Source: Candidatus Latescibacterota bacterium
GTDB taxonomy: Bacteria > Latescibacterota > UBA2968 > UBA8231
Length of the DNA stretch: 64,000 nt
Assembly: GCA_965206595.1 (NCBI GenBank)
Contig: OZ242214.1
Coordinates: 6,560,001 to 6,624,000, forward strand
Reading direction: 5' to 3'
Each line of letters begins with the position of its first letter. Positions within the stretch are counted from its first letter, which is position 1. Positions 11,102 to 64,000 of the stretch are shown here, one piece after another. Both the position numbers and the translations under genes were made by a program. Below the pieces are notes generated by a model. That model worked only from the letters and a program-made list of their open reading frames with translations. It ran no database searches and had not been told where the DNA came from.

Positions 11102-11349
11102 CAGGTTTGGCGGGACTGGAGTGATCGCCTCGCCTGCAAGATCTTGCTGCACTCAAGCTTTGCCGCCGCAAGCTTTGGCGCGCTGCAAACTGTTTTTGCG
11201 CCTGGATATTCTGGCGGAAAGGACGGGAAGAGCGCTCCTGCAATCCTTGCCTACCCCTGTGCTAGCTTTACCTTGGGAGACACAAAATGGGCAGTGAAGC
11301 GTAACGGCTCGGCCCGGTGATTTCGTGACCAGGAGCGACAGGATCTGAG

Positions 11350-12549
11350 ATGCAACAAGTGCTCGAGACTCTAACCGTCAGGACATTCAAATCCCTGGAG
11401 GACATGACCGTCGAATTGGGATTGGTCAATGTCTTCATTGGCGCCAACGGAAGCGGAAAGAGCAACTTGCTCGAGGCCTTGGGGGTACTCTCTGCGGCCT
11501 CGGATGGCAAGGTCGATGATCAAAGCTTGTTGGCCCGTGGTGTTCGTCCCGGCCTTCCCGCGCTTTTCAAGTCCGCCTTCCCCGGTAGAGACGGAAAGAA
11601 AATCCCACCACATCTGTATTTCGGGGCCCGCAGCGGGGGAGCGAAATACGAAGTTTCCCTGCACAATCCGCTTAATGATCCGGCGCCGGCCTGGAAATTC
11701 AAGACAGAGCGGTGGGAAGGTGACAACATCACATATGTTGGTCGTTCACCCGCACAAGGCAAAAAAACCAATCCCGAACGGGGGCTAGCTGCACTGAAGG
11801 CCGTGGAAGTCGACAGCGGTGCAGCTCTGGATCTCTTAAAGTTGCTGCAGGGCTACGTCATTTTTTCCCCGACAACACCTGTATTGCGCGGCGTTGCACC
11901 GGAAACGCAACCAAGACAGCCCGTTGGCTTGTCTGGCGGGAACCTGCCGCAAGCAATAAAGGAGCTACTTAAACAACGTGGAGAGGATCAAAACAGTAAA
12001 CAGATTTGCAGGGATGCCCTGAGACTTGTCGATTGGGCGGTGAGCTATGGGTATACATCTTCTTCTGAATTAGCTCTCTCTCCTGCTGCAGCTGCATCGG
12101 ATTCCGTGATTCGTTTTCGCGACAAATTCATGCGAGATGGGCGAAATGGACTTTCGGGCTATGACGCTTCCGAAGGGGCCTTGTACGTTCTGTTTCTCGC
12201 GGTGATTTCCGGTCACCCGAAAAGTCCTCGATTATGTGCCGTAGACAATGCGGATCACGGATTGAACCCCAGGTTGGCCCGGTCCTTGATGGAGCACCTG
12301 TGCCGGTGGTACCTGGAAGCAGAAGAGCCACGACAGATCCTGCTGACGACGCACAATCCACTGGTTCTGGATGGGCTTCCATTACAGGATGACCGCGTGC
12401 GTCTGTTCGCCGTGTCCCGAACCAACTCGGGCCGCACTTCCGTCAGGCGCGTGGTCGTCGATGAGAGCATGAGGGAAAAAGCGGAGCAGGGCTGGACCTT
12501 GTCTCGACTGTGGGTGATGGGTCACCTGGGGGGTGTCCCGGATGTCTGA
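11350..12549 (+). CDS. AAA_21/AbiEii-type ABC-like ATPase
   Basis: FKSL, VFIGANGSGKSNLLEA, ASEG, degenerate Walker B CAVDNADHGLNP, LLTTHNP; lower-GC codon usage. Confidence 0.88.
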   Translation: MQQVLETLTVRTFKSLEDMTVELGLVNVFIGANGSGKSNLLEALGVLSAASDGKVDDQSLLARGVRPGLPALFKSAFPGRDGKKIPPHLYFGARSGGAKYEVSLHNPLNDPAPAWKFKTERWEGDNITYVGRSPAQGKKTNPERGLAALKAVEVDSGAALDLLKLLQGYVIFSPTTPVLRGVAPETQPRQPVGLSGGNLPQAIKELLKQRGEDQNSKQICRDALRLVDWAVSYGYTSSSELALSPAAAASDSVIRFRDKFMRDGRNGLSGYDASEGALYVLFLAVISGHPKSPRLCAVDNADHGLNPRLARSLMEHLCRWYLEAEEPRQILLTTHNPLVLDGLPLQDDRVRLFAVSRTNSGRTSVRRVVVDESMREKAEQGWTLSRLWVMGHLGGVPDV

Positions 12550-13252
12550 ACCGCTGCGTATCGCCGTTGCCGTCGAAGGACCTACTGACGCAATCGTGCT
12601 GAGGGCGATCCTGGACGCCTTGTTGCCGAGAACCGAATTCATTTTCCAGACCTTGCAGCCGGAAGAATCCAGCGCCTTTGATACGGGGACATCAGGAAAA
12701 ACAGGTGTTGGGTGGGTCGGAGTCTATCGCTGGTGCCGTCAATCCGCTTCGGAAGGAGGAGGTTCCGTGTCCGGTTCTTCGGTCCTTCTTTTTCATGACC
12801 TGTTGATCATCCAGGTAGACGCGGACGTTGCAGGAACAAATTATTGCAGTGGAAGTATTCGAGACGCACCGCGCAATGATTTGCCTTGTGAAAAACCCTG
12901 TCCACCACCAAATAGAACTACGGATGCCTTGCGACCGGTTGTGCTCAACTGGCTCGGCGAATTTAAGTGTCCTCCGAAGGTGGTATTATGCACCCCTTCC
13001 AAGAATATCGAGGCTTGGGTGGTTGCTGCCGTCTGGCCCAACAATTCCCTGGTCCAACGCAACGACTGGGAATGCCGCCCCAATCCGGAAGCTCAACTAG
13101 GGAATCTTCCCAAGGCAAAGCAGTTTGGGAAACGCCCGGACGACTATGAAGCCAAGCGGGAGGAGATGAGGAAGGCGTGGCCGTGCGTGGCCTCACGCCT
13201 GACTGAGGCGGCGCGATTTGAAAGGGAATTCCTGGCGGCTATTCCCACTTGA
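12542..13252 (+). CDS. ATPase partner protein with TOPRIM-like motifs (DUF4276/RloB-like)
   Basis: N-terminal VAVEGPTD, DxD motif (QVDAD), IEAWV; start overlaps the end of the ATPase gene. Confidence 0.65.
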   Translation: MSEPLRIAVAVEGPTDAIVLRAILDALLPRTEFIFQTLQPEESSAFDTGTSGKTGVGWVGVYRWCRQSASEGGGSVSGSSVLLFHDLLIIQVDADVAGTNYCSGSIRDAPRNDLPCEKPCPPPNRTTDALRPVVLNWLGEFKCPPKVVLCTPSKNIEAWVVAAVWPNNSLVQRNDWECRPNPEAQLGNLPKAKQFGKRPDDYEAKREEMRKAWPCVASRLTEAARFEREFLAAIPT

Positions 13253-13275
13253 TCCGCAATTGAGGAAGGACCGCC

Positions 13276-13992
13276 ATGAGAAAAGTACTGTCGGGCCTTT
13301 TGGCCGGGGTGTTGCTGGTTTCCTGCTCTGACAACAGCAGCCCGGTCAAAAGCCAAAACCCACCGGCGGCAAAGCGAATCAGCAGCCCCATTACCTGGAG
13401 CCAGCCGGTAGCGAGCGTCGACAACCTGGCCGAACAGCGCACCGCGGGAAAAGCCGAACAGGCGCCGGAACCCGAAGCGCCACAGGAGGAGTTCGTTGTT
13501 TCCGGAACTATCCGGAACGAAACCGGAGCCGACTTGACCGGGACGAAAGTCGTTGCCTGGTGGGGTGTGGTGACGGGCGAGGACTACAACTATTTCTTCG
13601 GTGAAGGAACCGTCGACGTCCAGGACCTGACCTTCGAGTTGGTCTTCTCCGAAGCCCCGCCCGTCGAGGCCCTGAACCGCGACCTTGGGGTCGCCTATAT
13701 CCTGATAGCCAGATCTTCCGCTACCGGGATGGAGGAACCAGGAATCCTTCCCGAAGACTACGACTACTTCGAGAACATCCTGGGAGGGGCGACCCGGCAC
13801 TGCGTGATCTTCTCCACCGGGGAGAATGTCAATGGCATCCAATGGGTTGAGGAGTTCGAACCAGGATACGGCGTGGGGGAAGGGGTGAAGATTCCGGACT
13901 ACCACTTCGAGGGGCTCGAACCGGTGGACCCCTCCTCCGTAGAAATCGTTGTCGACGACCTGGAAAACCTGGTTTTCGTGAACTGGACCTGA
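13276..13992 (+). CDS. Hypothetical acidic lipoprotein
   Basis: RBS GAAGGA; lipobox LLVSC after a basic/hydrophobic leader. Confidence 0.75.
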   Translation: MRKVLSGLLAGVLLVSCSDNSSPVKSQNPPAAKRISSPITWSQPVASVDNLAEQRTAGKAEQAPEPEAPQEEFVVSGTIRNETGADLTGTKVVAWWGVVTGEDYNYFFGEGTVDVQDLTFELVFSEAPPVEALNRDLGVAYILIARSSATGMEEPGILPEDYDYFENILGGATRHCVIFSTGENVNGIQWVEEFEPGYGVGEGVKIPDYHFEGLEPVDPSSVEIVVDDLENLVFVNWT

Positions 13993-14247
13993 TCCCCGGT
14001 CTTCATTGGGGATGGCGGGTCCCGCCACCTGAATTGGGCCGGACAAGAGTGTCGCCGGGGGGTAGCGGCTGGCCATTCGTGGGGGCGTCTTCGGACAACG
14101 AACCCTTCCCTGCCTGTGGTTCCATTTTCTGCAGTTGCCGGGCAGCATGGGCGGAGTTACTCTTGCCCCTCGCAGCCGGCCTCCCGCCGCCTGAAGCTCC
14201 CCCAGCTATGTCTCCCCCGCCAGCACCTCCGTGAGCCCGACTAACCG

Positions 14248-14679
14248 ATGAGCTGCGAAACTACCCCCCATCCTGCCCGCTGTTCCTGGATCTGCCACCC
14301 TCTCTTCGAAGAGCCTTGGCCGAAATCCGCGGCTTTGGTGGCGGCGATTTTCGCCTTCTCCGCCCTCGCCGCGGTCGCTTTCGAGGGGCTCCTGTACGGC
14401 GCCATCGCCCTCGCCGTTCTCAGCGGGTCGATGTCGCGGTTCCTCCTGCCGACCCGCTACGAGATCGGCGCCGCCGGAATCACCGTGAGCCACCTGTTCC
14501 GGCGGCGGCTGCGAGCCTGGAAGGAGATACGCCGCGTCGAGGTCCGCGATGACGGGCTTTTCCTCAGCCCGTTCGCCCGTCCCAGCCGGCTGGACAGCTA
14601 CCGCGGTTTATTTCTGCCGGCCGCCGGGGTCGGGGTGGAAAAGCTCGAGGAACTGGTCGGACGGCATGTCCCGGGTTGA
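14248..14679 (+). CDS. Small membrane protein with PH-like C-terminal domain
   Basis: Two TM segments, then PTRYEIGAAGITV...WKEIRR...LSPFARPSRLDSYRGLFL; first gene of the operon. Confidence 0.7.
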   Translation: MSCETTPHPARCSWICHPLFEEPWPKSAALVAAIFAFSALAAVAFEGLLYGAIALAVLSGSMSRFLLPTRYEIGAAGITVSHLFRRRLRAWKEIRRVEVRDDGLFLSPFARPSRLDSYRGLFLPAAGVGVEKLEELVGRHVPG

Positions 14680-15028
14680 GCGGCTGCGGGCCTGGTGGTC
14701 GCACGCCTTCGCCGTCGAAGAAGCTGCCGACCGCGACATCGACAAGCCGGAGCGGGAGCTGATCGAACGGGTCGCCGACTTTCTCGGGGGCCGCGGACTG
14801 ACGGCACCTGCCGTCATGCTGCTCGAAGTGGGGCGACCGCTCAACTTCGTCGGCAGCCAGCTGCTCCTCTTCCTGAGTCCCTTCATCTCGCTGATCTTCA
14901 ACCCCGACGAGCTGAAACGTTTCACCCGGCTGCTCGCCAAGCGCCGCTCCATCGACGCCCTTGTCGAAGCCATCTCGAGCCGAGGCGGCCGGGGCTGGAA
15001 GCGGGACTCGGACGCGGACCGGCAGTAG
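14666..15028 (+). CDS. Conserved hypothetical protein
   Basis: MSRVERL...GLTAPAVMLLEVGRPLNFVGSQLLLFLSPF; overlaps the upstream gene; host-like codon bias. Confidence 0.7.
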   Translation: MSRVERLRAWWSHAFAVEEAADRDIDKPERELIERVADFLGGRGLTAPAVMLLEVGRPLNFVGSQLLLFLSPFISLIFNPDELKRFTRLLAKRRSIDALVEAISSRGGRGWKRDSDADRQ

Positions 15029-15046
15029 GGCAGGATCGAACCTGTA

Positions 15047-16879
15047 ATGGACGTCTTCATCGCCACCGACTGCGGCAGCACCACGACCAAGGCGATCCTC
15101 ATCGAGCGCCAGGCGGACGGAATCTGCCGGCAGACCTTCCGGGGCGAGGCCCCGACCACGGTCGAGGCCCCCTTCGAGGACGTCACGCGCGGCGTGCTCA
15201 ACGCCATATCCGAGGTGGAGGAGCTGTCGGGGCGGACGATCCTCGACGGGGAGCGGATCATCACCCCGGCCGCGGGCGACCGCGGCGTCGACATCTACAT
15301 CTCGACGAGCAGCGCCGGCGGCGGCCTGCAGATGATGGTCGCGGGGGTGGTCGCCTCGATGACGGGGGAAAGCGCGCAGCGCTGCGCTCTCGGAGCCGGG
15401 GCCATCGTCATGGACGTCCTCGCCGCCAACGACCGCCGGCTCCCCCATGAGAAGATCGAACGCATCCGCCGGCTGCGGCCGGACATGTTCCTGCTTTCCG
15501 GCGGCACCGACGGCGGCACCGTCTCCCACGTCGTCGAGCTCGCCGAGTTCATCGCCGCGGCCGACCCCAGACCGAGGTTCGGCAGCGGCTTCCGGCTCCC
15601 TCTCATCTACGCGGGGAATCGCGACGCCCGCCCAGAGATCGAAAAGGTGCTTGCGGAGAGAACCTCCCTGACCGTCACCGAGAACCTGCGGCCGGTGCTC
15701 GAGAGGGAGAACCTCGGACCCGCCCGGCATGTGATCCACGACCTCTTTCTCGAGCACGTGATGGCGCAGGCCCCGGGGTACCGCAAGCTGATGTCCTGGA
15801 CCGGTGCGCCGATCGTGCCGACCCCGGCCGCGGTGGGCCGAATCATCCAGACCATCGCCCGCCTCCGGGACATCGACGTCATCGGCGTCGACATAGGCGG
15901 CGCCACCACCGATGTCTTCAGCGTCTTCCGCCCCTCCGACGACGCCGGCACGGACCGGGAAGAGCCGGTCTTCAACCGCTCGGTCAGCGCCAACCTCGGC
16001 ATGTCGTACAGCATCTCCAACGTCCTCAACGAGGCCGGCCTGGAGAACGCCATGCGCTGGATACCTTTCGACATCGACGAGACCGACCTGCGCGACCGCA
16101 TCAAGAACAAGATGATCCGGCCGACCACCATACCGCAGCAGCTCGAGGAGCTGCAGCTCGAGCACGCCCTGGCGCGCGAGGCCCTGCGACTCGCCTTGGT
16201 CCAGCACCGCGCCCTCGCCGTCGGTCTCAAGGGGGTGCAGTCGGAACGCACCCTGTCCGACGTCTTCGAGCAGTCGGCGACCGGGGAATCCCTGATCGAC
16301 ATGGCGGCCCTCGACCTTCTCGTCGGCAGCGGCGGGGTGCTCTCCCACGCCCCGCGCCGGGTGCAGGCCGCGGCGATGCTGATCGACGCTTTCCAGCCTG
16401 CGGGGATCACCCGCCTCGCCGTCGACAGCATATTCATGATGCCCCACCTCGGGGCCCTGGCGGCGCTGGACGAACAGGCCGCCTCCGACGTCTTCGAGCG
16501 CGACTGCCTGATCGATCTCGGCACCTGCGCGGCACCAGCAGGCAGCGGCAGGCAGGGGGAGGCCTGCTGCGAGTTCAGCCTCACCGGCGCCGCGTCCGGG
16601 GAGGTGTCCGGCCAACTGCGGATGGGTGAACTGGTGCGGATCGAGTTCGCGGACGGCGAGGAGGCCGAGCTATCCCTCGAGCCTGCCCGGGGCTGGGACG
16701 CCGGGGCGGGCAGCGGGCGGGCGGTGCATGCGCGGGTGCGCGGAGGCGCTGCCGGCCTAGTGCTCGACGGGCGCGGGCGGCCGATCCAGTTCGCCGCGTC
16801 GGCCGCGGAGCGCCGCGAACAGGTGAAGGCCTGGAGCGAGGCCCTCGGATCCTACCCCGAGGGCGGAGAGCCGGGCTGA
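15047..16879 (+). CDS. GlmL/MutL (glutamate mutase L)-like ASKHA-fold ATPase
   Basis: DCGSTTTK, SSAGGGL, LGAGA, LLSGGTDGG, DIGGATTDVFS, SANLGM, GSGGVLSH. Confidence 0.88.
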   Translation: MDVFIATDCGSTTTKAILIERQADGICRQTFRGEAPTTVEAPFEDVTRGVLNAISEVEELSGRTILDGERIITPAAGDRGVDIYISTSSAGGGLQMMVAGVVASMTGESAQRCALGAGAIVMDVLAANDRRLPHEKIERIRRLRPDMFLLSGGTDGGTVSHVVELAEFIAAADPRPRFGSGFRLPLIYAGNRDARPEIEKVLAERTSLTVTENLRPVLERENLGPARHVIHDLFLEHVMAQAPGYRKLMSWTGAPIVPTPAAVGRIIQTIARLRDIDVIGVDIGGATTDVFSVFRPSDDAGTDREEPVFNRSVSANLGMSYSISNVLNEAGLENAMRWIPFDIDETDLRDRIKNKMIRPTTIPQQLEELQLEHALAREALRLALVQHRALAVGLKGVQSERTLSDVFEQSATGESLIDMAALDLLVGSGGVLSHAPRRVQAAAMLIDAFQPAGITRLAVDSIFMMPHLGALAALDEQAASDVFERDCLIDLGTCAAPAGSGRQGEACCEFSLTGAASGEVSGQLRMGELVRIEFADGEEAELSLEPARGWDAGAGSGRAVHARVRGGAAGLVLDGRGRPIQFAASAAERREQVKAWSEALGSYPEGGEPG

Positions 16880-18006
16880 TGGCGCACGCCTACACCCCGG
16901 GCCTGCGCGTCAGCGCCCACACGAAACTGCGGAAAACGCGGCGCTTGCCCCTGGCCGGCGAGCTCGCGGTGCGTCTCGGCGACCGCGTCGCCCGCGACCA
17001 GGTCGTGGCGCGCACCGAGCTGCCGGGAGACGCGGTGACCCAGAACCTCGTCAACCGGCTCGGCGTCACCGCGGCCGACCTGCCACACTACATGCTGAAA
17101 CAGGAGGGGGACCCGGTGCGGGAGGGGGAGCCGCTGGCCGAGACGCGGCCCTGGATCAAGTGGTTCAAGACCGTTGTCCCCGCCGAGACCGACGGCGTCG
17201 TCGAGAGCATCTCCTCGGTGACCGGCCAGGTGCTCTTGCGCAAGCCTCCGTCGAGCGTCGAGATTCCCGCCTTCGTCGACGGGGTGGTCGCCGAGGAGCT
17301 GCCAGGGGAAGGGGTCGTCGTCGAGACGGAAGGGGCCTACGTGCAGGGGATCTTCGGCGTCGGCGGAGAGCGCTGGGGGCCGCTTCGGGTCCTGTCGCAG
17401 ACCCACGACCAACCGCTTCAGGCAGGCCGGATCGACGAGAGCTGCCGCGGTGCCGTGCTGGTCGCCGGCGGCATCGCCGGCATCGAGGCGCTGGAGAAGG
17501 CCGCCGGGGCAGGCGCCGCCGGGGTGATCGCCGGCGGCATCCACGACCGCGATCTCAAGGAGTTGCTCGGCTACGACCTCGGCGTCGCCATCACCGGCAC
17601 CGAGGATATCGGCACCACCCTGATCGTCACCGAGGGGTTCGGAGAGATAGCCATGGCGCGCAATACCTTCGACATCCTGCGCTCGTGCGACGGCATGCAG
17701 GCCTCGATCTCCGGGGCGACGCAGATCCGCGCCGGGGTCCAGCGGCCCGAGATCCTGATCCCCTCCCCGAGCCCGGAGCGGGCCGAGGCAACCGCGGCCA
17801 AAGAGAACCCGGGAGGCATGGCCGAAGGGGACGCCCTGCGCGTCATTCGCGCCCCTCACTTCGGGAGAGTCGCCCGGGTGCGCGCCCTCGTCCCGGAGCT
17901 CCGGGAGATCGAAAGCGGCGCCCGGGTGCGGGTGCTCGAGGTCGAGTTCGAAGATGGAACCCGGGCGATCGTCCCGCGCGCCAACGTCGAGCTGATCGAG
18001 GAGTGA
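16879..18006 (+). CDS. Conserved hypothetical soluble protein (barrel-sandwich-like and C-terminal KOW-like segments)
   Basis: MAHAYTPGL, VQGIFGVGGE, VAITGTE, TEGFG, GATQIRAGVQRPE, VPRANVELIE; coupled to the GlmL-like gene (TGATG). Confidence 0.8.
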   Translation: MAHAYTPGLRVSAHTKLRKTRRLPLAGELAVRLGDRVARDQVVARTELPGDAVTQNLVNRLGVTAADLPHYMLKQEGDPVREGEPLAETRPWIKWFKTVVPAETDGVVESISSVTGQVLLRKPPSSVEIPAFVDGVVAEELPGEGVVVETEGAYVQGIFGVGGERWGPLRVLSQTHDQPLQAGRIDESCRGAVLVAGGIAGIEALEKAAGAGAAGVIAGGIHDRDLKELLGYDLGVAITGTEDIGTTLIVTEGFGEIAMARNTFDILRSCDGMQASISGATQIRAGVQRPEILIPSPSPERAEATAAKENPGGMAEGDALRVIRAPHFGRVARVRALVPELREIESGARVRVLEVEFEDGTRAIVPRANVELIEE

Positions 18007-18194
18007 GGATGGTGGGATTCTCCAGGTCCGACAGCGCCCAGCCCAAGGGCAACTTCAATCCGAATACACCGGGAACGGAATCTGCTCCTCGCGCAAGGGG
18101 CGGGTCTCGAACGCACAACCGCGGAATCTGCCGGACGCGGCCGAAGCTTATGCAGCTGACTTCAGCCAGCTGCAGCGAACATGGTATTTATTGA

Positions 18195-19394
18195 ATGAAA
18201 TCCTCCGGCCTGCTGCTGCTCTTCCTGCTTCCGTCCCTGGCCTGGGGACAGGCCGCGGCGCCGCCCCCCTTCGAGGCCTTCGACACCCCGAACGACGGCG
18301 GCAAAAGCATCACCGTTACCTGGCCGCTCGATGAGGCCGCCCCCAGGGACGCCGTATACAATATTTACGTCGCCGAGCTCGCCACCGGGCCGTTCCACCT
18401 GGCCGCCTCGGTTCCCGCCGCCGGCGGCCTGCAGTCGGAAGACCGCTCGGTCTTCGGCTTCGGCCCGGAGACCTCGCGGCACCAGTTCGCTCACATCGAG
18501 AAATACGAAGTCGACGGCGAGGCCGTGGCCCTGAAAAGCGACACCCCCTACTACCTCCGCGTGGGGGTGCGAACCGCCGCCGGGGAAGGCCGCGGGCAGG
18601 TGGTCGAGGCGACCGCGACCGCACAGCTGTTGGACTGGAGCAAGCTCAACAACCTCCTCCTCGGTCTGGCGCTGTCCGCCGCCATCCTGATCTCGATCTC
18701 GATGGCCAAAAGGAAGGACCTCTTCGTGCGCCGCATCGCCGGGCTCGAGGCGCTCGACGAGGCGCTGGGCCGCGCCACCGAGATGGGCAGGTCGGTGCTC
18801 TTCATCCACGGCCTTCGCGAGATGAACGCGATCTCCACCATCGCCGCAGTCAACATCCTCGGCCGCGTCGCCCGCCGCACCGCGGAGTACGACACCCTGC
18901 TGAAGGTGACCAACGCCGACCCGGTGGTGATGTCGGTCAGCCAGGAGACGGTGAAGGAGGCGTACATCGAGGCGGGGCGGCCGGACGCCTTCAACCCGGA
19001 CAACATCTTCATCGCCGGAACCGACCAGTTCAGCTACGCCGCCGCGGTCGACGGGATCATGGTGCGCGAAAAACCGGCCGCCCACATCATGATGGGGTAT
19101 TTCTACGCCGAGTCGCTGCTGCTCGCCGAGACCGGGGCCTCCACCGGGGCGATCCAGATCGCCGGAACCGACGCCTTCACGCAGCTCCCGTTCTTCGTCA
19201 CCACCTGCGACTACACCCTCCTCGGCGAGGAGCTGTACGCCGCCAGCGCCTACCTGTCTCGCGAGCCCCGGCTGCTCGGCAGCCTGAAGGGGCAGGACAT
19301 CGGCAAGGGACTGCTGCTGTTCGTCCTGATTACCGGCTCGCTGCTGGCGACGGCCGGAATCCCCTGGCTCACGCACCTGTTCACCGCTTTGTAG
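18195..19394 (+). CDS. Membrane protein with N-terminal FnIII-like domain and DUF6754-like domain
   Basis: Signal peptide, DTPNDGG, TM helix, RRIAGLEALDEALGRATEMGR, FYAESLLLAETG, QIAGT, LGEELYAASAYLS. Confidence 0.8.
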   Translation: MKSSGLLLLFLLPSLAWGQAAAPPPFEAFDTPNDGGKSITVTWPLDEAAPRDAVYNIYVAELATGPFHLAASVPAAGGLQSEDRSVFGFGPETSRHQFAHIEKYEVDGEAVALKSDTPYYLRVGVRTAAGEGRGQVVEATATAQLLDWSKLNNLLLGLALSAAILISISMAKRKDLFVRRIAGLEALDEALGRATEMGRSVLFIHGLREMNAISTIAAVNILGRVARRTAEYDTLLKVTNADPVVMSVSQETVKEAYIEAGRPDAFNPDNIFIAGTDQFSYAAAVDGIMVREKPAAHIMMGYFYAESLLLAETGASTGAIQIAGTDAFTQLPFFVTTCDYTLLGEELYAASAYLSREPRLLGSLKGQDIGKGLLLFVLITGSLLATAGIPWLTHLFTAL

Positions 19395-19442
19395 GCTGGA
19401 GAAATGCTGTTTCCGAGCCGCACTCTTCCGGTACTGGCCGCC
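19386..19442 (+). repeat. Left copy of a 57-bp imperfect direct repeat
   Basis: GCTTTGTAGGCTGGAGAAATGCTGTTTCCGAGCCGCACTCTTCCGGTACTGGCCGCC matches 20985-21041 at 52/57 positions (offset 1599). Confidence 0.92.
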
Positions 19443-20984
19443 GGCATACTGCTTGTACCCCAAGGAGGATAACAATATGCAAATGACATCGTCACCCGCT
19501 GCCGTCGTCCCTTCGGCATACGCCGAGAGTTATGCAAAGGCCCGCCTCCAAGACCAGGCAGCGGCCGACAACTATATCAAGCACACCACCATTGGCGACC
19601 CCGTGCTTGATCCGGTGATGGAGGAGTTGTCCTCGCTGCCTCCTGGTGATTTGCACAGGTTCATCAAGGCTGGCATAGAACAGCAGGATGAGGTTCTGCG
19701 CCGTGCACCGCAGCCGCTGCGCGATTTTTTAAAAATGTGGAAGACCCTCCCTGGTTCGACTATGAAGTCTTTCGGCCAGGGATCAATGCCTTCCACGCAA
19801 ATGTAGATCTCATGCTCGTGGCCTTCGTTACGGGGGTGCTGGTGGAAGGCTTTTCGACGCTTATCGCCAAGTCTTTCAGTATTACTGAGCGAGTGTCGTC
19901 AACCAAAAGACGCCTGCAGCAAAATAACCGCCACATGATGGACATATTTTTTCCCGGTGGCTTGCACAGAGAGAACGATGGATGGAAGCTATCCACGCGC
20001 ATTCGCTTCGTTCATACTCGAATAAGGCATCTGCCGGCGAAATCCGACGATTGGGATCACGAAGCCTGGGGCACGCCCGTAAGTGCGGCGCATCTGGGTT
20101 TTGCCATCTCCGTCTTTTCCAAGCGTCTGTTGGAATACTCGGAATTGGTGGGCGCGCGTTTCAGCGAGGAAGAAAAGAAGAGTGTTCTCGATGTTTGGCG
20201 CTACAGCGGCTATCTCATGGGAATACCTGAGACCATCCTCTATGCCGACGCCGCGGATGCGGAAGAAGTTTACAAGATCAGCTATATGTGCGAGCCGCCG
20301 ACGGACACCGCTTCGATAGCTGTTGCGAATGGGTTGATCCAGGCCATTCCTTCAGTTGCGGATGTAAAGGATCCAGTTGAAGTAGAGAAATTGACACATT
20401 TGGCCTATCGCCTTTCACGCGCACTCATTGGAAACAAACTCGCCAACTCGTTCCAGTTTCCAAAGACCAGGAATCTGGGAACACTGTTTAATTACCGGAT
20501 GAAACAACGCCTTCTGAGAGTGCTACAGAGAAAACAGGTTAGATTAAATAATTTTACTCAACTTCTCCAAATCTCGGTGTACGATGAGGATGGATTGAGT
20601 TACAGGCTGCCCGACCATGTAAAACACGCACTGTCAAACAAGTGGTGAACGGCGCTATGCGCTGTGATGCGGCCACCTCTATCCGGTAAATAAGCAATCA
20701 GGAAATCGGTCAGGTTGATCGAAGTTATCTACAGTTAGTGGCGTCGATAGTGCCATGCACTCGTATTGGCAAGCGAGTCGCCGCACCCCAACCCGGGATG
20801 GTCGAAGGAGTGACACTTTTGCAATTGGACCGTTCTTCCGCTGCCATTTTGCGCTATCGATGGTTGGTCATCGCGCTCGCAACACTGGTCATGCTGGCAC
20901 TGACGGCAGGAGTTCGCTTCATCACCGTTACAAACGATTATCGCATTCTGTTTAGCGAAGACAATCCGCAACTCCTCGCATTCG
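19443..20984. mobile_element. Lower-GC inserted segment between direct repeats; no integrase
   Basis: Abrupt composition shift; bounded by the 57-bp repeat; interrupts a contiguous operon. Confidence 0.65.
19477..20648 (+). pseudogene. ER-bound oxygenase MpaB/DUF2236 (Lcp-like) heme protein split by a -1 frameshift
   Basis: RBS AAGGAGG, ATG 19477; ...LRDF in frame 1 continues as KNVEDPPWFD in the -1 frame at T6A5 (19725-19735); downstream RIRFVHTRIR, WGTPVS, WRYSGYLMGIPE family motifs. Confidence 0.75.
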
Positions 20985-20998
20985 GCTTTGCAGGGTGA
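20819..20998 (+). pseudogene. Truncated N-terminus of an MMPL/RND-family transporter
   Basis: ILRYRWLVIALATLVMLALTAGVRFITVTNDYRILFSEDNPQLLAF resembles an MMPL TM1 and following segment; cut at the right repeat. Confidence 0.6.
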
Positions 20999-21041
20999 AG
21001 AAATGCTGTTTCTGAGCCGCACTCTTCCGGTACTGACCGCC
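20985..21041 (+). repeat. Right copy of the 57-bp direct repeat (contains start of the next gene)
   Basis: GCTTTGCAGGGTGAAGAAATGCTGTTTCTGAGCCGCACTCTTCCGGTACTGACCGCC. Confidence 0.92.
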
Positions 21042-21659
21042 TTCGCCTTCGGCGTCGTCGGGGTGGCGATCTTCTACATACCGCACCCGGCCGCGCAGGA
21101 GGTCGAGCGCGAGCTGGCCCTGTGGCTGCGCATCGCCTTCGCCTTCGCCTACTTCCTCGGGCTCTTCAGCCTGCTCAACCTGCACTGGAGCCGCATCCGG
21201 CAGCGGGTCGCCGGCTGGGGGTACAACGCCGTCGCCCTGGCGAGCTTCGGCGTCATGTTCCTCTTCGTCGTCCACAACGACGGCGCCGGACCGTTCGCCC
21301 CGCAGGCCCAGGAAGGGGCCTACCAGTGGATGTTCCAGTACGTCCACATCCCGTGCACGGCGACGATGTTCTCGATGCTCGCCTTCTTCATTGCTTCTGC
21401 GGCGTACCGCACCTTCCGCGCCCGCAGCGCCGATGCCGCCATCCTCCTCGTGGCCGCGGTCATCGTCATGGTCGGCCGCGTCCCGATCGGAGCCCTGATC
21501 TCCGACGCGCTTCCCGCCCTTTCCGACTGGCTGATGTCGGTGCCCAACCTCGCGGCCAAGCGCGGCATTCTGCTGGGGGTGAGCCTCGGCGCCATCGCCA
21601 CCTCGCTGCGCATCATCTTCGGCATCGAACGATCCTACGTCGGAGGCGGTGAGGAATGA
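21003..21659 (+). CDS. Integral membrane protein of the GlmL-like operon
   Basis: About 6 TM helices; ATMFSMLAFFIASAAYRTFRARS, RIIFGIERSY. Confidence 0.82.
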   Translation: MLFLSRTLPVLTAFAFGVVGVAIFYIPHPAAQEVERELALWLRIAFAFAYFLGLFSLLNLHWSRIRQRVAGWGYNAVALASFGVMFLFVVHNDGAGPFAPQAQEGAYQWMFQYVHIPCTATMFSMLAFFIASAAYRTFRARSADAAILLVAAVIVMVGRVPIGALISDALPALSDWLMSVPNLAAKRGILLGVSLGAIATSLRIIFGIERSYVGGGEE

Positions 21660-22492
21660 TCGACCGGCTTCTCGGCATCGACCGCCGCATCATCTTCGCC
21701 GCCGTCTTCCTCGGGGTCGCCATACCCCTGCTGACCGATCTGCAGTTCCCGGTCAAACCCAGGAAACAGGTGACGGCGGTGTTCGACGAGATCGAAAAAG
21801 TCGCGGGTAAAGAAGACCCCCTCGTCCTGCTCTCCTTTACCTACGGAGCCAGCACCGAACCGGAAATGCAGCCGATGGCCAAGGCCCTGCTGCGTCACCT
21901 CTTCAGCCGCGACGTCGCCGTCGTCGCCGTCTGCCTGTGGCCGGAAGCGCCCGGTCTCGCCCAGCTGGCCCTCGAGGAGACCGCGGCGGAGTTCGCAAAG
22001 ACCTACGGCGAGGATTACGCCTTCATGGGGTACAAGCCCGGCACCTACAGCGTCATCATCAACATGGGTCAGGATTTCGCCGACGCCTTCCCCAAGGACA
22101 ACTGGGGGACCGCCACCTCCGAGGTGCCGCTGACCGCCGGCGTCGCCGGTCTCTCCGACTTCGACCTGGTGATCGACCTGGCGGCCGGGGATTCGATCGA
22201 GTTCTGGTGGCTGCCGTTCGGGCAGGAGAGGCACAACCTCGCCTTCGCCGCGGGCTGCACCGCGGTGATGGCCCCCGATCTCTACCCGTTCCTGCAGTCG
22301 GGGCAGATGCGCGGCCTCATCGGTGGGCTCGTCGGCGCCGCCGAATACGAAAAGCTGATCGGCCATCCGGGTGGAGCGACCGCGGGAATGAGCCCCCAGT
22401 CGGTCACCCACCTGATCATCGTCTTCTTCATCCTGGTCGGGAACGCCGCCTATTTCGCGGCTAGGCACCGGCAGCGGAGGCGGCCGGAATGA
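21656..22492 (+). CDS. Membrane-anchored alpha/beta-domain protein of the GlmL-like operon
   Basis: DRRIIF, TM, soluble domain (GEDYAFMGYKPG, GCTAVMAPDLYPFLQSGQ, GGLVGAAEYE), C-terminal TM; ATGA overlap. Confidence 0.82.
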   Translation: MIDRLLGIDRRIIFAAVFLGVAIPLLTDLQFPVKPRKQVTAVFDEIEKVAGKEDPLVLLSFTYGASTEPEMQPMAKALLRHLFSRDVAVVAVCLWPEAPGLAQLALEETAAEFAKTYGEDYAFMGYKPGTYSVIINMGQDFADAFPKDNWGTATSEVPLTAGVAGLSDFDLVIDLAAGDSIEFWWLPFGQERHNLAFAAGCTAVMAPDLYPFLQSGQMRGLIGGLVGAAEYEKLIGHPGGATAGMSPQSVTHLIIVFFILVGNAAYFAARHRQRRRPE

Positions 22493-23214
22493 ATCGCGAT
22501 TCCATCCTGTTCCTCGCCGTTCTCCTGTTCTTCGCCGCGGCCAACGCCTACCTGTTCGCCGCCGGCAAGCTCAGCCCCGACTGGACCGGCTTCGGGATAA
22601 TCGTCGCCGCCGGCCTGACCCTGGCGCTCTACAGCTTCCTCTACCGCGACAACCCCTTCTTCAAGCTCGCCGAGCACGTCTTCGTCGGCGTCGCCGCGGC
22701 CTACGTGTTCGGCCAGACCTGGTACCCGACCATCTACGGCGAGGTGATCGACAAGCTCACCGGGCTGGGTGAAGCCGGCGCCTGGGAGGGAAACGCCTGG
22801 CTCGTGCTGTTCCCGACCGCGCTCGGGATCCTGATGCTGACCCGGTTCAGCACCCGCATCGGCTGGACCAGCCGCATCGCCTTCGGGTTCATCTTCGGCC
22901 TGGGGGCCGGGTTCACGATCCCGGCCTACATCTCGACGTTCATCCTGAAACAGGTGGAACCGACCCTGCAGCCGATCACCCTGTCCTGGGCCGGGCTCGA
23001 CCTGTTCATCATCCTCGTCGGCGTCGTTTCGGTGCTGGTCTACTTCTTCTTCTCCGTCGAGCACCGCGGCGCCGTCGGCATGGTCTCGAAGCTGGGGATC
23101 TGGGTGCTGATGATCTCTTTCGGCGCCTCCTTCGGGTACACGATCATGGCGCGGCTGTCGCTGCTTATCGGGCGTGTGAGGTTCCTTCTCGGCGACTGGC
23201 TGAACCTGATGTAG
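22489..23214 (+). CDS. Integral membrane protein of the GlmL-like operon
   Basis: YSFLYRDNPFFKLAEHVFVG, YFFFS, FGASFGYTIMARLSLLIGR; about 7 TM; ATGA overlap. Confidence 0.82.
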   Translation: MNRDSILFLAVLLFFAAANAYLFAAGKLSPDWTGFGIIVAAGLTLALYSFLYRDNPFFKLAEHVFVGVAAAYVFGQTWYPTIYGEVIDKLTGLGEAGAWEGNAWLVLFPTALGILMLTRFSTRIGWTSRIAFGFIFGLGAGFTIPAYISTFILKQVEPTLQPITLSWAGLDLFIILVGVVSVLVYFFFSVEHRGAVGMVSKLGIWVLMISFGASFGYTIMARLSLLIGRVRFLLGDWLNLM

Positions 23215-23218
23215 GAGG

Positions 23219-24127
23219 TTGATCTTGGAGTATCGACAGCTGGGAAAAAACGGTCCGCAGATTCCCGCGATCGCCCTCGGAGCCTGGCCGTTCGGCGGCG
23301 CCATGGGGGCCGTCGCAGAAGAGATGGCCGTCGCCACCGTGCGTGCCGCCATCGACCGCGGCATCACCATGGTCGACACCGCCCAGTCGTACCGCGCCAG
23401 CGAACGCATCGTCGGCCGCGCCCTCGCCGGCGGCTACCGCGAGCGCTGCTTCCTGGCGACCAAGGTGAGCGGCGACTTCTCGCCGCCGGCGATCCGCGCC
23501 GCCATGGAGAACAGCCTGCGGCAGCTCGACGTCGACTACGTCGACCTCTACCAGATCCACGGCTGGAACCCCGCCTACCCGGTGGATGCCAGCATGGAGG
23601 CGATGGAGCAGCTGCGCCTCGAGGGGAAGACCCGCTATATCGGCGTTTCCAACTACAACGCCGGGCAGATGGCCCAGGCGATGGAGACCGCCCCCTTTCA
23701 ATCGGTGCAGCCCGGTTACAACCTGCTCGCCCGCGGTATCGAGGCGGAGGACATCCCGTTCTGCGTCGAGCACGGCATCGGCATCCTGGCGTACAGCCCC
23801 CTGGGGCAGGGATTGTTGACCGGCAGGTACCGGCCGGGCCACCGCTTCGCCGCCGACGATTACCGCTCGGAGCGGGCCCAGTTCCAGGGGGAGCAGTTCG
23901 CGCGCACCGTCGCGGCGACCGACCGCCTGGCGGAGCTCGCCGCGGACAAGGGACTGTCGCTGGTGCAGCTGGCGATCGCCTGGATCCTGAGGCTGCCGGC
24001 GATCAGCACGGTCCTGGTCGGCGCCAAGAACCCCGGTCAGCTCGACGACCACCTCGGCGCCGTCGGGGTCCGTTTCAGCGACGACGAGCTCGAGGCGATC
24101 GACGCGGTCCTCGCCGACGCCGGGTAG
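23219..24127 (+). CDS. Aldo/keto reductase
   Basis: DTAQSY, LATK, DYVDLYQIH, IGVSNY, YSPLGQGLLTG. Confidence 0.92.
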   Translation: MILEYRQLGKNGPQIPAIALGAWPFGGAMGAVAEEMAVATVRAAIDRGITMVDTAQSYRASERIVGRALAGGYRERCFLATKVSGDFSPPAIRAAMENSLRQLDVDYVDLYQIHGWNPAYPVDASMEAMEQLRLEGKTRYIGVSNYNAGQMAQAMETAPFQSVQPGYNLLARGIEAEDIPFCVEHGIGILAYSPLGQGLLTGRYRPGHRFAADDYRSERAQFQGEQFARTVAATDRLAELAADKGLSLVQLAIAWILRLPAISTVLVGAKNPGQLDDHLGAVGVRFSDDELEAIDAVLADAG

Positions 24128-24130
24128 CCG

Positions 24131-25081
24131 GTGGCAGCGCCCGAACTCTCCCGCCCTTTCGCGAGCACATCCAGGGTCGTTGTCGGCCGCGACGCAGGCC
24201 TTCCCGTCGAGATGGCCTGCGCCGACAACGGCAACCTTTCCGCGGACTACACGCTGCTGCTGCTGCACGGCCTCTTCGACCACAAGGGTACCTGGGAGCT
24301 GATGGAGCCCTTTCTCGGCGAGCGTTTCAGAACGGTCGCCGTCGACCTCGTCGGCTTCGGGGAGAGCAGCAGGCCGCGCTTCCGGTCCCTGCCCGAGAGC
24401 GAGCGGTACTGCCTGGACCGGCTGGCTGCCTACGTCGGAGAGCTCATCCGCGCTCTCGAGCTCGACCGCCTCGTCCTCGTCGGCAACTCCCTCGGCGGGG
24501 CCATCGCCCTGCGGCTTGCCTGTGCCGATCCGCAGGAGCGTCCCTGGGCGGCCGGGCTGGACCTGCGCGGACTTGTGCTGATCTCCGCTGTCGGGTACCC
24601 GCAGCCGCTGCCGGGATTCGTGCCGCTCCTCGCTGGAAAACCGGGTGCCCTTTTGTTGAACCCCACCCTGCAGCGGCTGGCGGTGGCCAGCGGCCTTGTG
24701 CGGCGGTTCGCCGCATCGACCTATTACCGGATCTTTTACGATCCCCGCCGGATCCCTGAGCGGCTGGTCGACCGGGCGGTCGAGTACTTCGCCATGCCCG
24801 GCACCCCGTTCGCGTACCGGATGACGGTGCGCAACCTGACTCCGCCCGACATCGACACCTTTCCGGGCAAGTACGCCGAAATGTCGCTGCCCGCCCTGAT
24901 CCTCTGGGGACAGCAGGACCGCATCGTGCCCCCCCTCAACGCGCTCCGCTTCGAAACGGATCTGGCGGCGGCGAAACTGCACGTTTTCGACGACTGCGGG
25001 CACGCCCCGCACCTCGAATACCCGGAGGGAACGGCAGTCGCGATCCGCGACTGGATCCGCAACAGCGTGAATACGGACTGA
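24131..25081 (+). CDS. Alpha/beta hydrolase
   Basis: LLHGL, DLVGFGES, GNSLGG nucleophile elbow, WGQQD, CGHAPH. Confidence 0.9.
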   Translation: MAAPELSRPFASTSRVVVGRDAGLPVEMACADNGNLSADYTLLLLHGLFDHKGTWELMEPFLGERFRTVAVDLVGFGESSRPRFRSLPESERYCLDRLAAYVGELIRALELDRLVLVGNSLGGAIALRLACADPQERPWAAGLDLRGLVLISAVGYPQPLPGFVPLLAGKPGALLLNPTLQRLAVASGLVRRFAASTYYRIFYDPRRIPERLVDRAVEYFAMPGTPFAYRMTVRNLTPPDIDTFPGKYAEMSLPALILWGQQDRIVPPLNALRFETDLAAAKLHVFDDCGHAPHLEYPEGTAVAIRDWIRNSVNTD

Positions 25082-57853: not shown

Positions 57854-59461
57854 TCAGTCCGTCCCGGTGTTGCCGGCGGACCGCCCGGCCTCGGCCAGCG
57901 TATCCCGCATCAGTTTGAAATGCAAGGAGTCGTTCAGGGCGATCCAGCTCGCTTCGATGATGTTTTCCGACACCCCCACCGTACCCCAGACTTCGCGGCC
58001 GTCGGATGACTCGATCAGCACCCGCACCCGCGCCGCAGTGCCGTTGCTGCTGTCGAGGACGCGCACCTTGTAGTCGGCGAGATGGACGTGTCTCAGGCTC
58101 GGCCAGGCCCCCTCGAGGGCCTTGCGCAGGGCGCGATCGAGGGCGTTGACCGGGCCCTCCCCTTCGGCCACGGTGTGCACCATCTCCCCGTTCACCTCGA
58201 CCTTGACAATCGCTTCGGCCACCTCGGCGCTGCCGTCGTCCTTGCGGCTGATGGTGCGGAAGCTCAGGGGCCGAAACTGGTCCTCGTAGAGTCCCATCGT
58301 CCGCCGCGCCAGCAGCTCGAACGAGCCCTCTGCGGCCTCGAACTGGTAGCCGTCGTGCTCGAGCCGCTTCACTTCCCCCAGCACCTGCGGGACGATCGGA
58401 TCCTTCTTGCTGAGCCCGGGGAAGAACCTGTTGAGCTTGGAAACCACCGTGCTCCCGCCCGACTGGTCCGAGACCAGGAAGCGGCGCTCGTTCCCCGTCG
58501 CCTGCGGGTCGATGTGCTCGTAGCAGCGCGGGTTCTTGGTCATCGCGTCGATGTGCACCCCTCCCTTGTGGGCGAAGGCGCTCTCGCCGACGTACGGCTG
58601 GCGGTGATCGTGATGGACGTTGGCGATCTCGCTGAGAAAGCGCGAGAAGTCCATCAGCTCGGCGAGGTTCTCCTTCCCGATGAGGTGCATGCCGAGCTTG
58701 AGCTCGAGGGTCGGGATCACCGTACACAGATTGGCGTTGCCGCAGCGTTCTCCATAGCCGTTGAACGTCCCCTGCACTTGGACCGCTCCCAGCTCGGCGG
58801 CGGCCACGGTGTTGGCTTCGGCCATGCCGGAGTCGTTGTGGGTGTGGATGCCGAGAGGAAGGGAAACGGCGTCGCGGGTCGCGGCGAAGATGCGGCTGAC
58901 CTCGCTCGGCCGCCGGCCGCCGTTGGTGTCGCACAGGACCAGCAGGCGGGCGCCGCCGCGCGCCGCGGCGCGCAGGGTCTCCAAGGCGTAGTCGGGGGCC
59001 TCGCAGTAGCCGTCGAAGTAATGTTCGGCGTCGTAGATCACCTCGCGGCCGTGGGCGGCGAGATACCCCACCGAGTTCTCGATCAGCTCCAGGTTTTCCT
59101 GGGGCGTGGTCTTGAGCGCCTCCGTCACGTGCAGAATCCAGCTCTTGCCGAAGATGCAGACAGACTCGGTCTCCGCCTGCAGCAGCGTGTTCAGGGTGGC
59201 GTCCTCTTCCGCCGGCACCCCTGCCCGGCGCGTGCTGCCGAAAGCGGTGACGCGAGCCCGGAGATCGAGCTTCTTCACCTCGCGGAAAAACGCCTGGTCC
59301 TTCGGGTTGGTCGGGTTCGGCCAGCCCCCTTCGATGTAGTGGACCCCGAGGCGGTCTAGGCGTCGGGCGATTAGCAGTTTGTCCTCGAGCGAGTAGGCGA
59401 TCCCCTCGGCCTGGGCCCCGTCCCGCAGGGTGGCATCGTAGACTTCCAGGGTATCGTTCAT
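57854..59461 (-). CDS. cimA: Citramalate synthase
   Basis: TLRDGAQAEG, YDAEHYFDG, CDTNGG, HTHND, FAHKGGVH, FEAAEGS. Confidence 0.93.
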   Translation of the reverse strand: MNDTLEVYDATLRDGAQAEGIAYSLEDKLLIARRLDRLGVHYIEGGWPNPTNPKDQAFFREVKKLDLRARVTAFGSTRRAGVPAEEDATLNTLLQAETESVCIFGKSWILHVTEALKTTPQENLELIENSVGYLAAHGREVIYDAEHYFDGYCEAPDYALETLRAAARGGARLLVLCDTNGGRRPSEVSRIFAATRDAVSLPLGIHTHNDSGMAEANTVAAAELGAVQVQGTFNGYGERCGNANLCTVIPTLELKLGMHLIGKENLAELMDFSRFLSEIANVHHDHRQPYVGESAFAHKGGVHIDAMTKNPRCYEHIDPQATGNERRFLVSDQSGGSTVVSKLNRFFPGLSKKDPIVPQVLGEVKRLEHDGYQFEAAEGSFELLARRTMGLYEDQFRPLSFRTISRKDDGSAEVAEAIVKVEVNGEMVHTVAEGEGPVNALDRALRKALEGAWPSLRHVHLADYKVRVLDSSNGTAARVRVLIESSDGREVWGTVGVSENIIEASWIALNDSLHFKLMRDTLAEAGRSAGNTGTD

Positions 59462-59465
59462 TTCT

Positions 59466-60536: not shown

Positions 60537-60538
60537 TC

Positions 60539-60789
60539 TCACCTCCCTCTTTTTTCGATTCGATTTGAAAGCCAGAACAGCCCCGCAACCACGGGGTCGA
60601 CCACCAGGATTACGACCGCGACTATCCCCGCCGCGGCCAGCGCGATCCCGACATGTACCCGACATGTATCAGAACGGCGCTGACGATTGCCGCTGCAACG
60701 AAAGAGAAAATCAGCGCGAACGCGGTAATGATCAGCACCCGGGAGATCGGGTTGTTGATCTTCCGCCCGCCCACCTTGATGTATCCCAT
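60539..60789 (-). pseudogene. Small two-TM protein frameshifted by an 11-bp tandem duplication
   Basis: CCCGACATGTA occurs twice (60647-60668); removing one copy gives a continuous 79-aa hydrophobic ORF from ATG 60789 to the stop at 60539. Confidence 0.65.
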
Positions 60790-60801
60790 ACCGGCCCTTC
60801 C

Positions 60802-61401: not shown

Positions 61402-61403
61402 TC

Positions 61404-62816: not shown

Positions 62817-62831
62817 TTCCCAGTCTCGTCG

Positions 62832-64000
<1,169 letters not shown>

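Follow-up and report, generated by a model that had tools for sequence, protein, structure and literature searches.

A conserved eight-gene cluster joining a GlmL-type ATPase to a DUF6754 membrane protein: a candidate ATP-dependent membrane complex in Latescibacterota

The stretch of DNA analysed here (64,000 nucleotides, positions 6,560,001 to 6,624,000 of contig OZ242214.1 from a Candidatus Latescibacterota bacterium; hereafter, the window) contains a run of eight genes on one strand, which we call A to H and whose coordinates are collected in Table 1. Their products include a GlmL-type ATPase (C), a soluble multidomain protein (D), a membrane protein with a DUF6754 domain (E) and several further membrane proteins. 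The run is best explained as a conserved operon encoding a complex of several subunits, ATP-dependent and associated with the membrane, of an undescribed kind: the genes keep their company and order among related loci, C and D are predicted to bind each other, and E presents a strongly conserved domain that would lie at the cytoplasmic face of the membrane. A fuller statement, namely that the complex is ATP-driven and tied to peptide acquisition, with C and D acting in the manner of a reactivase on the clamped cytoplasmic domain of E, is more tentative, and, taken whole, we place it somewhat short of an even chance.

The conservation of the cluster was assessed by searching a profile of E relatives against one genome per species, which returned 250 encoding stretches; the best 80 of these 250 were analysed, the presence of each gene being scored by tblastn with the window proteins. 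The taxonomic labels of these loci are mixed (56 Latescibacterota, 19 Gemmatimonadota, 1 Planctomycetota and 4 unlabelled), and differently labelled loci intermix as a single group on the tree, all of them in Latescibacterota-type metagenome-assembled genomes (MAGs). E was detected in all 80, F and G in 79 each, H in 78, D in 77, C in 74, B in 69 and A in 68, and both the order A-B-C-D-E-F-G-H and the strand are constant in every locus as far as the DNA reaches. The gaps correspond to contig ends except at two loci: L009, where 3.4 kb upstream of E lack D and C, and L062, where A was undetected. Identity to the window proteins ranges from 66 to 96% for C (with one further partial match of 47% at a contig end), from 57 to 95% for E, from 57 to 96% for F and from 37 to 96% for A, and the flanking genes vary by clade while the eight genes remain together. 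A preliminary description of this DNA had treated the genes as one unit, and their co-occurrence in the 80 loci, in the same order wherever the DNA reaches, agrees with it: within this lineage, selection maintains the cluster as a genuine unit.

Two of these loci call for separate comment. L009 is a 6.5-kb MAG contig, for which misassembly is possible; it carries E-F-G-H without D or C (L009:1-3466), and the open reading frames (ORFs) upstream match nothing else in the set. Loci L073 and L074 are two contigs of the same MAG that bear nearly identical copies of the cluster and are sisters on the tree, which reflects either strain heterogeneity within the bin or a recent duplication.

Judged by its sequence, C is an intact ASKHA ATPase of the MutL/GlmL family, as had been suggested. 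It matches Pfam MutL (PF13941) with an E-value of 4.9e-128 and a score of 428.2 bits (gathering threshold 27) over profile positions 2-450 of 450, and the motifs TDCGSTTTK, VDIGGATTD and GSGG, which we take to be its ATP-binding motifs, are invariant in 27 of 27 C sequences. Over residues 1-490, C is colinear with the GlmL of Peptoclostridium acidaminophilum at 29% identity, and the N-terminal GST.TK and the VD.GGATTDV stretches of the two proteins align. Unlike GlmL, C then continues for about 120 extra residues, possesses a segment, DLRDRIKNKMIRPTTIP (residues 347-363), that is modelled against D, and is encoded beside six membrane-protein genes without glmS or glmE. This segment is invariant in C and unconserved in GlmL. 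A tblastn search of C against a plasmid collection recovered only canonical GlmL-type genes, annotated glmL, at about 30% identity, and neither the single sequence nor a profile of C found a relative in the PDB below an E-value of 0.1.

Could C nevertheless be an ordinary GlmL-type reactivase for a B12 mutase encoded elsewhere in the genome, with the membrane genes as unrelated neighbours? Such a role would suit both the Pfam match and the names given in public records to proteins closely related to C, 'methylaspartate mutase' or 'glutamate mutase L'; we nevertheless regard it as hardly credible. C was the only protein of the cluster matched in an NCBIfam scan, and it falls below all three cut-offs there: GlmL NF040745 (235.2 bits against 475), Or-4 (212.3 against 600) and glmL_fam (176.1 against 204.05). 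Searches by tblastn for GlmS, GlmE and methylaspartate ammonia-lyase gave no hits in the 64-kb window or the 80 loci, a GlmL query in the same search matched only C, and no B12-binding or B12-enzyme family name occurs among the Pfam-scanned ORFs of the window, in line with the earlier claim that glmS, glmE and other B12 enzymes are absent from it. In the locus of P. acidaminophilum (L081), by contrast, the order is glmS-glmL-glmE-methylaspartate ammonia-lyase, such that the canonical glmL sits between the two mutase genes, whereas C is held in fixed synteny with membrane genes and has a D-binding segment (residues 345-369) that is unconserved in bona fide GlmL. With no mutase nearby, NCBIfam scores under every cut-off and only 29% identity to a GlmL flanked by glmS and glmE, C is unlikely to have the usual role of GlmL, which is also what the preliminary description had concluded. 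The public 'glutamate mutase' label on C is probably wrong, and where Latescibacterota and related MAGs are used for metabolic reconstruction, it can lead to glutamate fermentation being wrongly deduced.

The gene that follows, D, encodes a soluble protein whose earlier portrayal as barrel-sandwich and KOW-like is well founded. Pfam searches of 27 homologues found Biotin_lipoyl in 26, RnfC_N in 25, NQRA_N in 6, PA in 5 and KOW in 5, and Foldseek gave matches, at the level of single domains only, to the KOW domains of NusG/Spt5, a biotin carrier, NqrA (8acy_A), an aminopeptidase PA domain and one domain from rifampin phosphotransferase. In the structural model of D (predicted local distance difference test, pLDDT, 85.2; predicted template-modelling score, pTM, 0.67), a beta-rich barrel-sandwich region extends to about residue 171 and is followed by an alpha/beta domain at about residues 180-295, which carries the invariant but low-confidence loop GATQIRAGV, and by a KOW-like barrel at the C-terminus; the N-terminal tail, MAHAYTPGLRV, is nearly invariant, yet disordered in the model. 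PA domains, phosphohistidine swivel domains and the swivelling domain of dehydratase reactivases belong to one fold class. No PDB relative of D was found below an E-value of 0.1 with either the single sequence or a profile, and no catalytic family was recognised in it by Pfam on the homologues or by Foldseek.

The first of these domains raises the question of whether D is modified. The match of the window protein itself to Biotin_lipoyl (PF00364) scores 20.8 bits, under the cut-off of 22.1. Biotinyl and lipoyl carriers are expected to bear their modified lysine in an MKM or a DKA motif; in D, the loop at the site of the hairpin reads AETRPWIKWFKT and has conserved lysines K94 and K97, with no MKM or DKA motif seen. 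In 13 loci, all of one clade and including L055, L068 and L080, a gene for an LplA/LipB-type lipoate/biotin ligase lies directly 5' of A (e.g., L080:5406-6236), and in three of the 13 it overlaps A by 19 nucleotides. Because a lipoyl/biotinyl-like domain with K94 and K97 in a flexible loop coincides with such a ligase neighbour, modification of D is worth testing.

Modelling supports the view that C and D bind each other. Two-chain prediction with alignments of 27 rows was run three times alongside three controls; the interface score (ipSAE) of C with D was 0.79, 0.80 and 0.79, the best control reached 0.01, and the runs share at least 94% of their contacts, with partner pLDDT values of at least 84. 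In calibration, 116 of 157 solved complexes attained the mark, as did 2 of 215 mismatched pairs, counts that are only rough here because our own alignments were supplied. Since neither C nor D has a sequence relative in the PDB, the result is unlikely to derive from a sequence-similar solved complex. The predicted interface sets the invariant stretch 345-369 of C against residues 222-226, 233-237 (DLGVA), 253-255 (GFG) and 281-285 (TQIRA) and the KOW face of D; it also includes residues 5-6 of the N-terminal tail of D and residues 11, 286 and 434-437 of C, which fall in conserved glycine-rich loops that we take to be nucleotide-binding. Invariant residues are concentrated at this interface in D (26 of 49, vs. 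64 of 326 elsewhere; Fisher p = 2e-6) and in C (28 of 47, vs. 239 of 563; p = 0.017), though prediction and test use the same alignments and are not fully independent. The predicted pair, with its interface defined at the level of residues, offers a handle for biochemistry in lineages without genetics.

On the membrane side of the cluster, E matches DUF6754 (PF20539) with an E-value of 1e-114 and 382.4 bits (gathering threshold 27) over profile positions 2-256 of 257. Its model (pLDDT 92.7, pTM 0.78) shows an alpha/beta domain at residues 182-355, built of six strands alternating with helices and situated between two transmembrane (TM) helices. Because basic residues (eight lysines or arginines) flank the domain side of both TM helices, the domain is most simply placed in the cytoplasm. 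Together, these predictions support a bitopic E, with its strongly conserved DUF6754 domain clamped at the cytoplasmic face between the two TM helices. E has no close structural analogue in Foldseek searches, the best match being the HAD-like LNS2 domain of Nir2 at a TM-score of 0.33, and no PDB sequence relative of E was found below an E-value of 0.1. E had been described as an FnIII plus DUF6754 protein: the DUF6754 assignment stands, and the model does have a beta-sandwich before the first TM helix, but Pfam fn3 leaves the window protein unmatched and matches some distant relatives only. At the start of this outer sandwich, residues 30-43 carry the motif D-T-P-N-D-x-G...T-x-T-W, which all 20 close relatives keep unchanged and which is still visible as DxPNDxG...W in the consensus of a 76-row alignment.

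The family to which E belongs is large. A profile of E searched against 1.84 billion representative sequences found 2561, 1879 and 980 clusters (at 50% identity) at E-values up to 1e-3, 1e-10 and 1e-30, respectively. In all 63 of the long relatives scanned, DUF6754 lies at the C-terminus, and the N-terminal parts of these 63 contain fn3 domains in 2 cases, PQQ_2 propellers in 6 and HEAT repeats in a single one; the other 54 have no recognised domain there. Proteins of 700-1475 residues are 52-67% identical to residues 142-399 of E, and relatives at this level include names from Planctomycetota, Brocadiia, Eremiobacterota, Vulcanimicrobiota and WOR-3; among the DUF6754 clusters of the ESM Atlas, the commonest phyla are Planctomycetota and Nitrospirota. 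The evidence supports the conclusion that the extracytoplasmic part of E varies freely between phyla. The preliminary description had placed similar clusters in diverse uncultured bacteria and some archaea; no archaeal relatives appeared in the searches made, and a tblastn search of E against the plasmid collection gave no match.

A variable outer part joined to a fixed inner domain invites two further explanations. The first is an envelope or cell-shape machine, in which bitopic and polytopic proteins would provide the scaffold for the ASKHA ATPase and the outer domain of E would reach out to partners in the envelope. Precedents are found in PilM-PilN, FtsA and MreB-RodZ(-MreCD), where ASKHA proteins are docked on bitopic membrane proteins, and the likeness to them extends to an ASKHA protein encoded with membrane partners and to a conserved terminal peptide of D, from its disordered N-terminal tail, at the predicted interface with C. 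The single copy per locus, the near-universal occurrence in the sampled group and the replacement of the outer part of E by fn3 domains, BamB-like propellers or HEAT repeats in different phyla while the inner domain is retained would all fit such a machine. But C belongs to the enzyme-like GlmL/hydantoinase branch and not to a known filament-forming family, its partners are of families unrelated to those of the precedents, and the conserved neighbours include no genes for peptidoglycan, lipopolysaccharide or division; an envelope machine is conceivable but improbable. The second is transmembrane signalling, in which E would sense through its variable extracytoplasmic part and the C-D ATPase would read the output from the conserved cytoplasmic domain. 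The division of E into a variable N-terminal and a constant C-terminal part is what a receptor might show, but there is no kinase, cyclase, helix-turn-helix or receiver domain in the cluster or among its conserved neighbours, and G and the two extra polytopic proteins would be hard to explain; we therefore think signalling very unlikely.

The genes found next to the cluster bear on its output. In 33 of the 80 loci, a gene for a substrate-binding protein of the SBP_bac_5 (OppA) type lies directly 5' of A; in 13, Opp-type genes lie directly 5' of D, 11 of them having the substrate-binding protein and both permease genes between C and D; in at least 19, an oppD/oppF-type ATPase pair (ABC_tran plus oligo_HPY) lies directly 3' of H; and in 3, permeases follow H. 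Any Opp-type arrangement at all is present in 57 of 80 loci and none in 23, 6 of which have short flanks. One clade has the full order A-B-C-oppA-oppB-oppC-D-E-F-G-H-oppD-oppF, and in L063 and L080, which were annotated from that clade, oppF is followed by a gene for a 1190-residue Peptidase_MA_2/PD40 protein. Other neighbours, a class IV aminotransferase, an M19 dipeptidase and an S33-type hydrolase, are in keeping with a peptide theme. The placement of Opp genes between C and D in some loci shows that A-B-C and D-H are separable as two blocks. The cluster is itself no Opp/Dpp ABC importer, even where the two are interleaved: the Opp set has its own two ATPases, and none of A to H matches ABC_tran, BPD_transp_1 or SBP_bac_5. 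The preliminary description had offered transport, envelope biogenesis or signalling as possible functions, a choice that the Opp association narrows, and the interleaving of the two gene sets provides a testable link to peptide acquisition, which we see as a central trait of these organisms.

The same neighbours could also point to a metabolic operon, in which C and D would together make up a soluble enzyme that depends on ATP, belongs to the hydantoinase/oxoprolinase-like ASKHA branch and acts on a small peptide-derived substrate, with A, B and E to H forming a separate transporter or anchor. C does have weak matches to Hydantoinase_A (E-value 6.5e-4) and Hydant_A_N (E-value 9.6e-3); the invariant loops of D and residues 11, 286 and 434-437 of C all lie within the predicted interface, as they would in a composite active site; and Opp, peptidase and aminotransferase genes are the company that such an enzyme might keep, with Opp genes able to part C from D-H. 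Yet the lack of a recognised catalytic family in D tells against an enzyme, E has a cytoplasmic domain that roughly equals C in conservation and shows nothing typical of transporters, and differences in the flanks leave the set of eight genes intact. On balance, we consider a metabolic operon unlikely.

For the ATP-driven complex, the following scheme can be drawn up. Gene order suggests two modules, A-B-C and D-E-F-G-H. A and B might anchor C, and D might bridge C to a membrane core made of E, F, G and H. Diol and glycerol dehydratase reactivases (DdrAB, GdrAB) and EutA are ASKHA ATPases that pry open a partner; by analogy with such reactivase-type ASKHA chaperones, ATP turnover by C and D could remodel the cytoplasmic domain of E and so drive a change in the membrane core. 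The output would most likely be the uptake or handling of peptide-derived substrates, Opp genes, peptidases and aminotransferases being the recurrent neighbours. The likeness to the reactivases consists of an ASKHA ATPase with a second subunit, of PA/swivel-type matches (at the level of the domain) in the middle of D and of the Rossmann-like domain of E as a possible target. The differences are that neither C nor D has a PDB sequence match, that no B12 enzyme is nearby and that the putative target is anchored in the membrane; no reactivase is among the Foldseek matches listed for D.

Several points weigh against this scheme and the link to peptides. Foldseek TM-scores are no higher than 0.34 for D and E, so the analogy with reactivases and swivel domains draws on resemblance between single domains. 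As F, G and H match nothing, 'transport' is a guess. It is from operon structure only that we infer a single complex of all eight proteins or the docking of the ATPase on a membrane subunit. The window's own clade of 12 rows has no Opp-type neighbour, and as few as 4 changes account for the presence of any such neighbour on the 74-row tree of concatenated D-H; with so few changes, the Opp link is structured by clade and may reflect inherited gene order rather than function. Finally, all of the synteny comes from one phylum-level group, having been seen only in Latescibacterota-type MAGs among the best 80 of 250 matches. For the undescribed ATP-driven complex that the preliminary description had put forward, the conserved unit, the predicted binding of C to D and the lack of a paper or a named family hold up, and membrane docking and an eight-part assembly are suggested by operon structure only.

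No class of membrane machine that was tested fits the cluster. The systems already discussed differ from it in the ways described, and the remaining comparison, with RnfC and NqrA, is suggested by the N-terminal barrel-sandwich hybrid domain of D and by the occurrence of a soluble protein beside small polytopic membrane proteins. However, D has no NADH, FMN or Fe-S domain match, the rest of it giving weak PA and KOW matches and none to an Rnf or Nqr family; nor does any Rnf or Nqr family figure in the listed matches of the scanned F and H homologues. PADLOC returned no families for C, D, E or G. Full-text literature searches, which exclude subscription journals and preprint supplements, found no paper naming DUF6754, PF20539, PF13941 or TIGR01319, and searches combining GlmL with glutamate mutase, actin-like or Latescibacter found nothing on this system. 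In the searches made, the cluster matched no described system and no named family for it as a whole was found; its DUF6754 family is both large and unusually conserved between phyla, yet we found no paper that names it.

If the cluster does encode an ASKHA-driven membrane complex, it would add to the known means by which ATP is coupled to membrane processes. At its broadest, the proposal would be that an ASKHA (GlmL-type) ATPase and a swivel-domain partner power membrane machines of a new class, which has no relationship to the ABC, P-type, rotary or secretion ATPases. The class would be ancient and present in many bacterial phyla, most of them uncultured (among them Latescibacterota, Planctomycetota, Eremiobacterota and WOR-3), and by remodelling DUF6754, C and D would bring about the movement of peptide-derived cargo across the inner membrane or its processing there. 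In this broad form, we find the proposal rather doubtful.

The remaining proteins offer few family matches. For B, F, G and H, nothing consistent was found in Pfam or NCBIfam even at E-values up to 1, and F, G and H have no PDB sequence relatives below an E-value of 0.1. A had been called a PH-like protein with two TM helices; its long hydrophobic stretch, probably a hairpin, agrees with the second half of that description, and the PH label derives from a single match of the window protein to bPH_6, which at 20.2 bits is under the cut-off of 22 and is missing in 5 of 5 other A homologues scanned. Crude hydropathy scans do bear out the reading of F and H as polytopic proteins and, through two hydrophobic spans around its 212-residue domain, the membrane anchoring of G. 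With no lysine or arginine before its second TM helix and five after it, G shows a charge bias by which, as a crude estimate, its domain probably faces the periplasm. In the ESM Atlas, G-like clusters come from Latescibacterota, Fidelibacterota and Zixiibacteriota.

The proposal that E and G are distant paralogues finds no backing in BLASTP (E-value 3.1 or worse) or in three profile-profile comparisons with hhalign (probability 0.4% for the narrow, 0.9% for the broad and 0.2% for the domain-only profile), the last of which gave a colinear but non-significant alignment of about 90-125 residues. The two proteins do have a common layout of TM helix, alpha/beta domain and TM helix, probably on opposite sides of the membrane. 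A paralogy of F and H was likewise rejected (hhalign probability 0.4%).

Table 1. Genes A to H and the features of the interval between E and F (positions in the window).
Feature	Positions	Strand	Description
A	14248-14679	+	143 residues, membrane protein; soluble C-terminal domain after a single long hydrophobic stretch, probably a hairpin
B	14666-15028	+	120 residues; single hydrophobic stretch; no family match
C	15047-16879	+	610 residues; ASKHA ATPase, MutL/GlmL family; extra C-terminal domain of about 120 residues
D	16879-18006	+	375 residues, soluble; N-terminal tail, barrel-sandwich hybrid, alpha/beta (PA/swivel-like) and KOW-like domains
E	18195-19394	+	399 residues; signal peptide, FnIII-like beta-sandwich 27-140, TM 148-173, DUF6754 182-355, TM 358-386
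Repeat copy 1	19386-19442	+	57-nucleotide direct repeat; end of E and first F codons; leaves a 22-codon F stub (19404-19472)
Insert	19443-20984	+	1.54 kb, low G+C at third codon positions; MpaB/Lcp-type oxygenase gene and 86-residue ORF fragment
Repeat copy 2	20985-21041	+	57-nucleotide repeat; holds the functional F start
F	21003-21659 (ORF opens at TTG 20988)	+	218 residues, polytopic, about 6 hydrophobic spans; no family match
G	21656-22492	+	278 residues; TM, 212-residue domain, TM, basic C-tail; no family match
H	22489-23214	+	241 residues, polytopic, about 6-7 hydrophobic spans; no family match

The eight ORFs lie where the preliminary description had placed them, with overlaps of 14 nucleotides between A and B, 1 between C and D, and 4 each between F and G and between G and H. 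The start of B at ATG 14666 agrees with homologue lengths of 107-151 residues, and the homologues of F agree with a start at ATG 21003, not at the TTG that opens the ORF. The G+C content at third codon positions (GC3) of ORFs B to H is 0.84-0.94, as elsewhere in the genome, and the overall G+C content of the window is about 66%. Rfam and tRNA scans of the whole window gave no matches, and a scan for promoters and terminators gave a signal no higher than the shuffled expectation.

The tight coupling claimed for these genes applies at the overlaps but not between E and F, which are separated here by a 1.54-kb insert that had gone unnoticed. The two copies of the repeat that bounds it are 91% identical and duplicate the junction of the E stop and the F start. 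Within the insert, the MpaB/Lcp-type oxygenase gene (PF09995, E-value 3.4e-18) is split over overlapping frames at 19453-19806 and 19737-20648, possibly by a frameshift, and is followed by the ORF fragment (20738-20998), which presumably resembles the N-terminus of an RND/MMPL exporter. GC3 in the insert is 0.57-0.66, vs. about 0.9 for the cluster. Relatives of its two ORFs were found in none of the 80 loci, and its DNA is absent from the two closest, L001 and L002; in L001, at 94-96% DNA identity, F directly follows E. The insert is treated as a strain-specific intrusion that lies outside the system.

A second region of low GC3 (0.59-0.74), at about 11139-14130 just 5' of the cluster, likewise has no counterpart in L001 or L002. 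Within it, a candidate anti-phage defence pair occupies 11350-13249, its members being PDC-M31A (399 residues, E-value 7.7e-150) and PDC-M31B (239 residues, E-value 8.4e-69). An M19 dipeptidase gene is also present upstream within the window. On the 3' side of H, an aldo/keto reductase gene and a gene for an S33-type alpha/beta hydrolase occupy 23219-25081; the S33-type hydrolase is found downstream in the window and in five relatives, and directly after H in L006, L007 and L029. Toward the far end of the window, the minus strand carries a run of leucine-biosynthesis type at 57854-63956 (two HMGL-like/LeuA_dimer synthases, an Iso_dh dehydrogenase and the large subunit of an aconitase-family enzyme), with ArgJ and an aminotransferase beside it, an ordinary housekeeping context.

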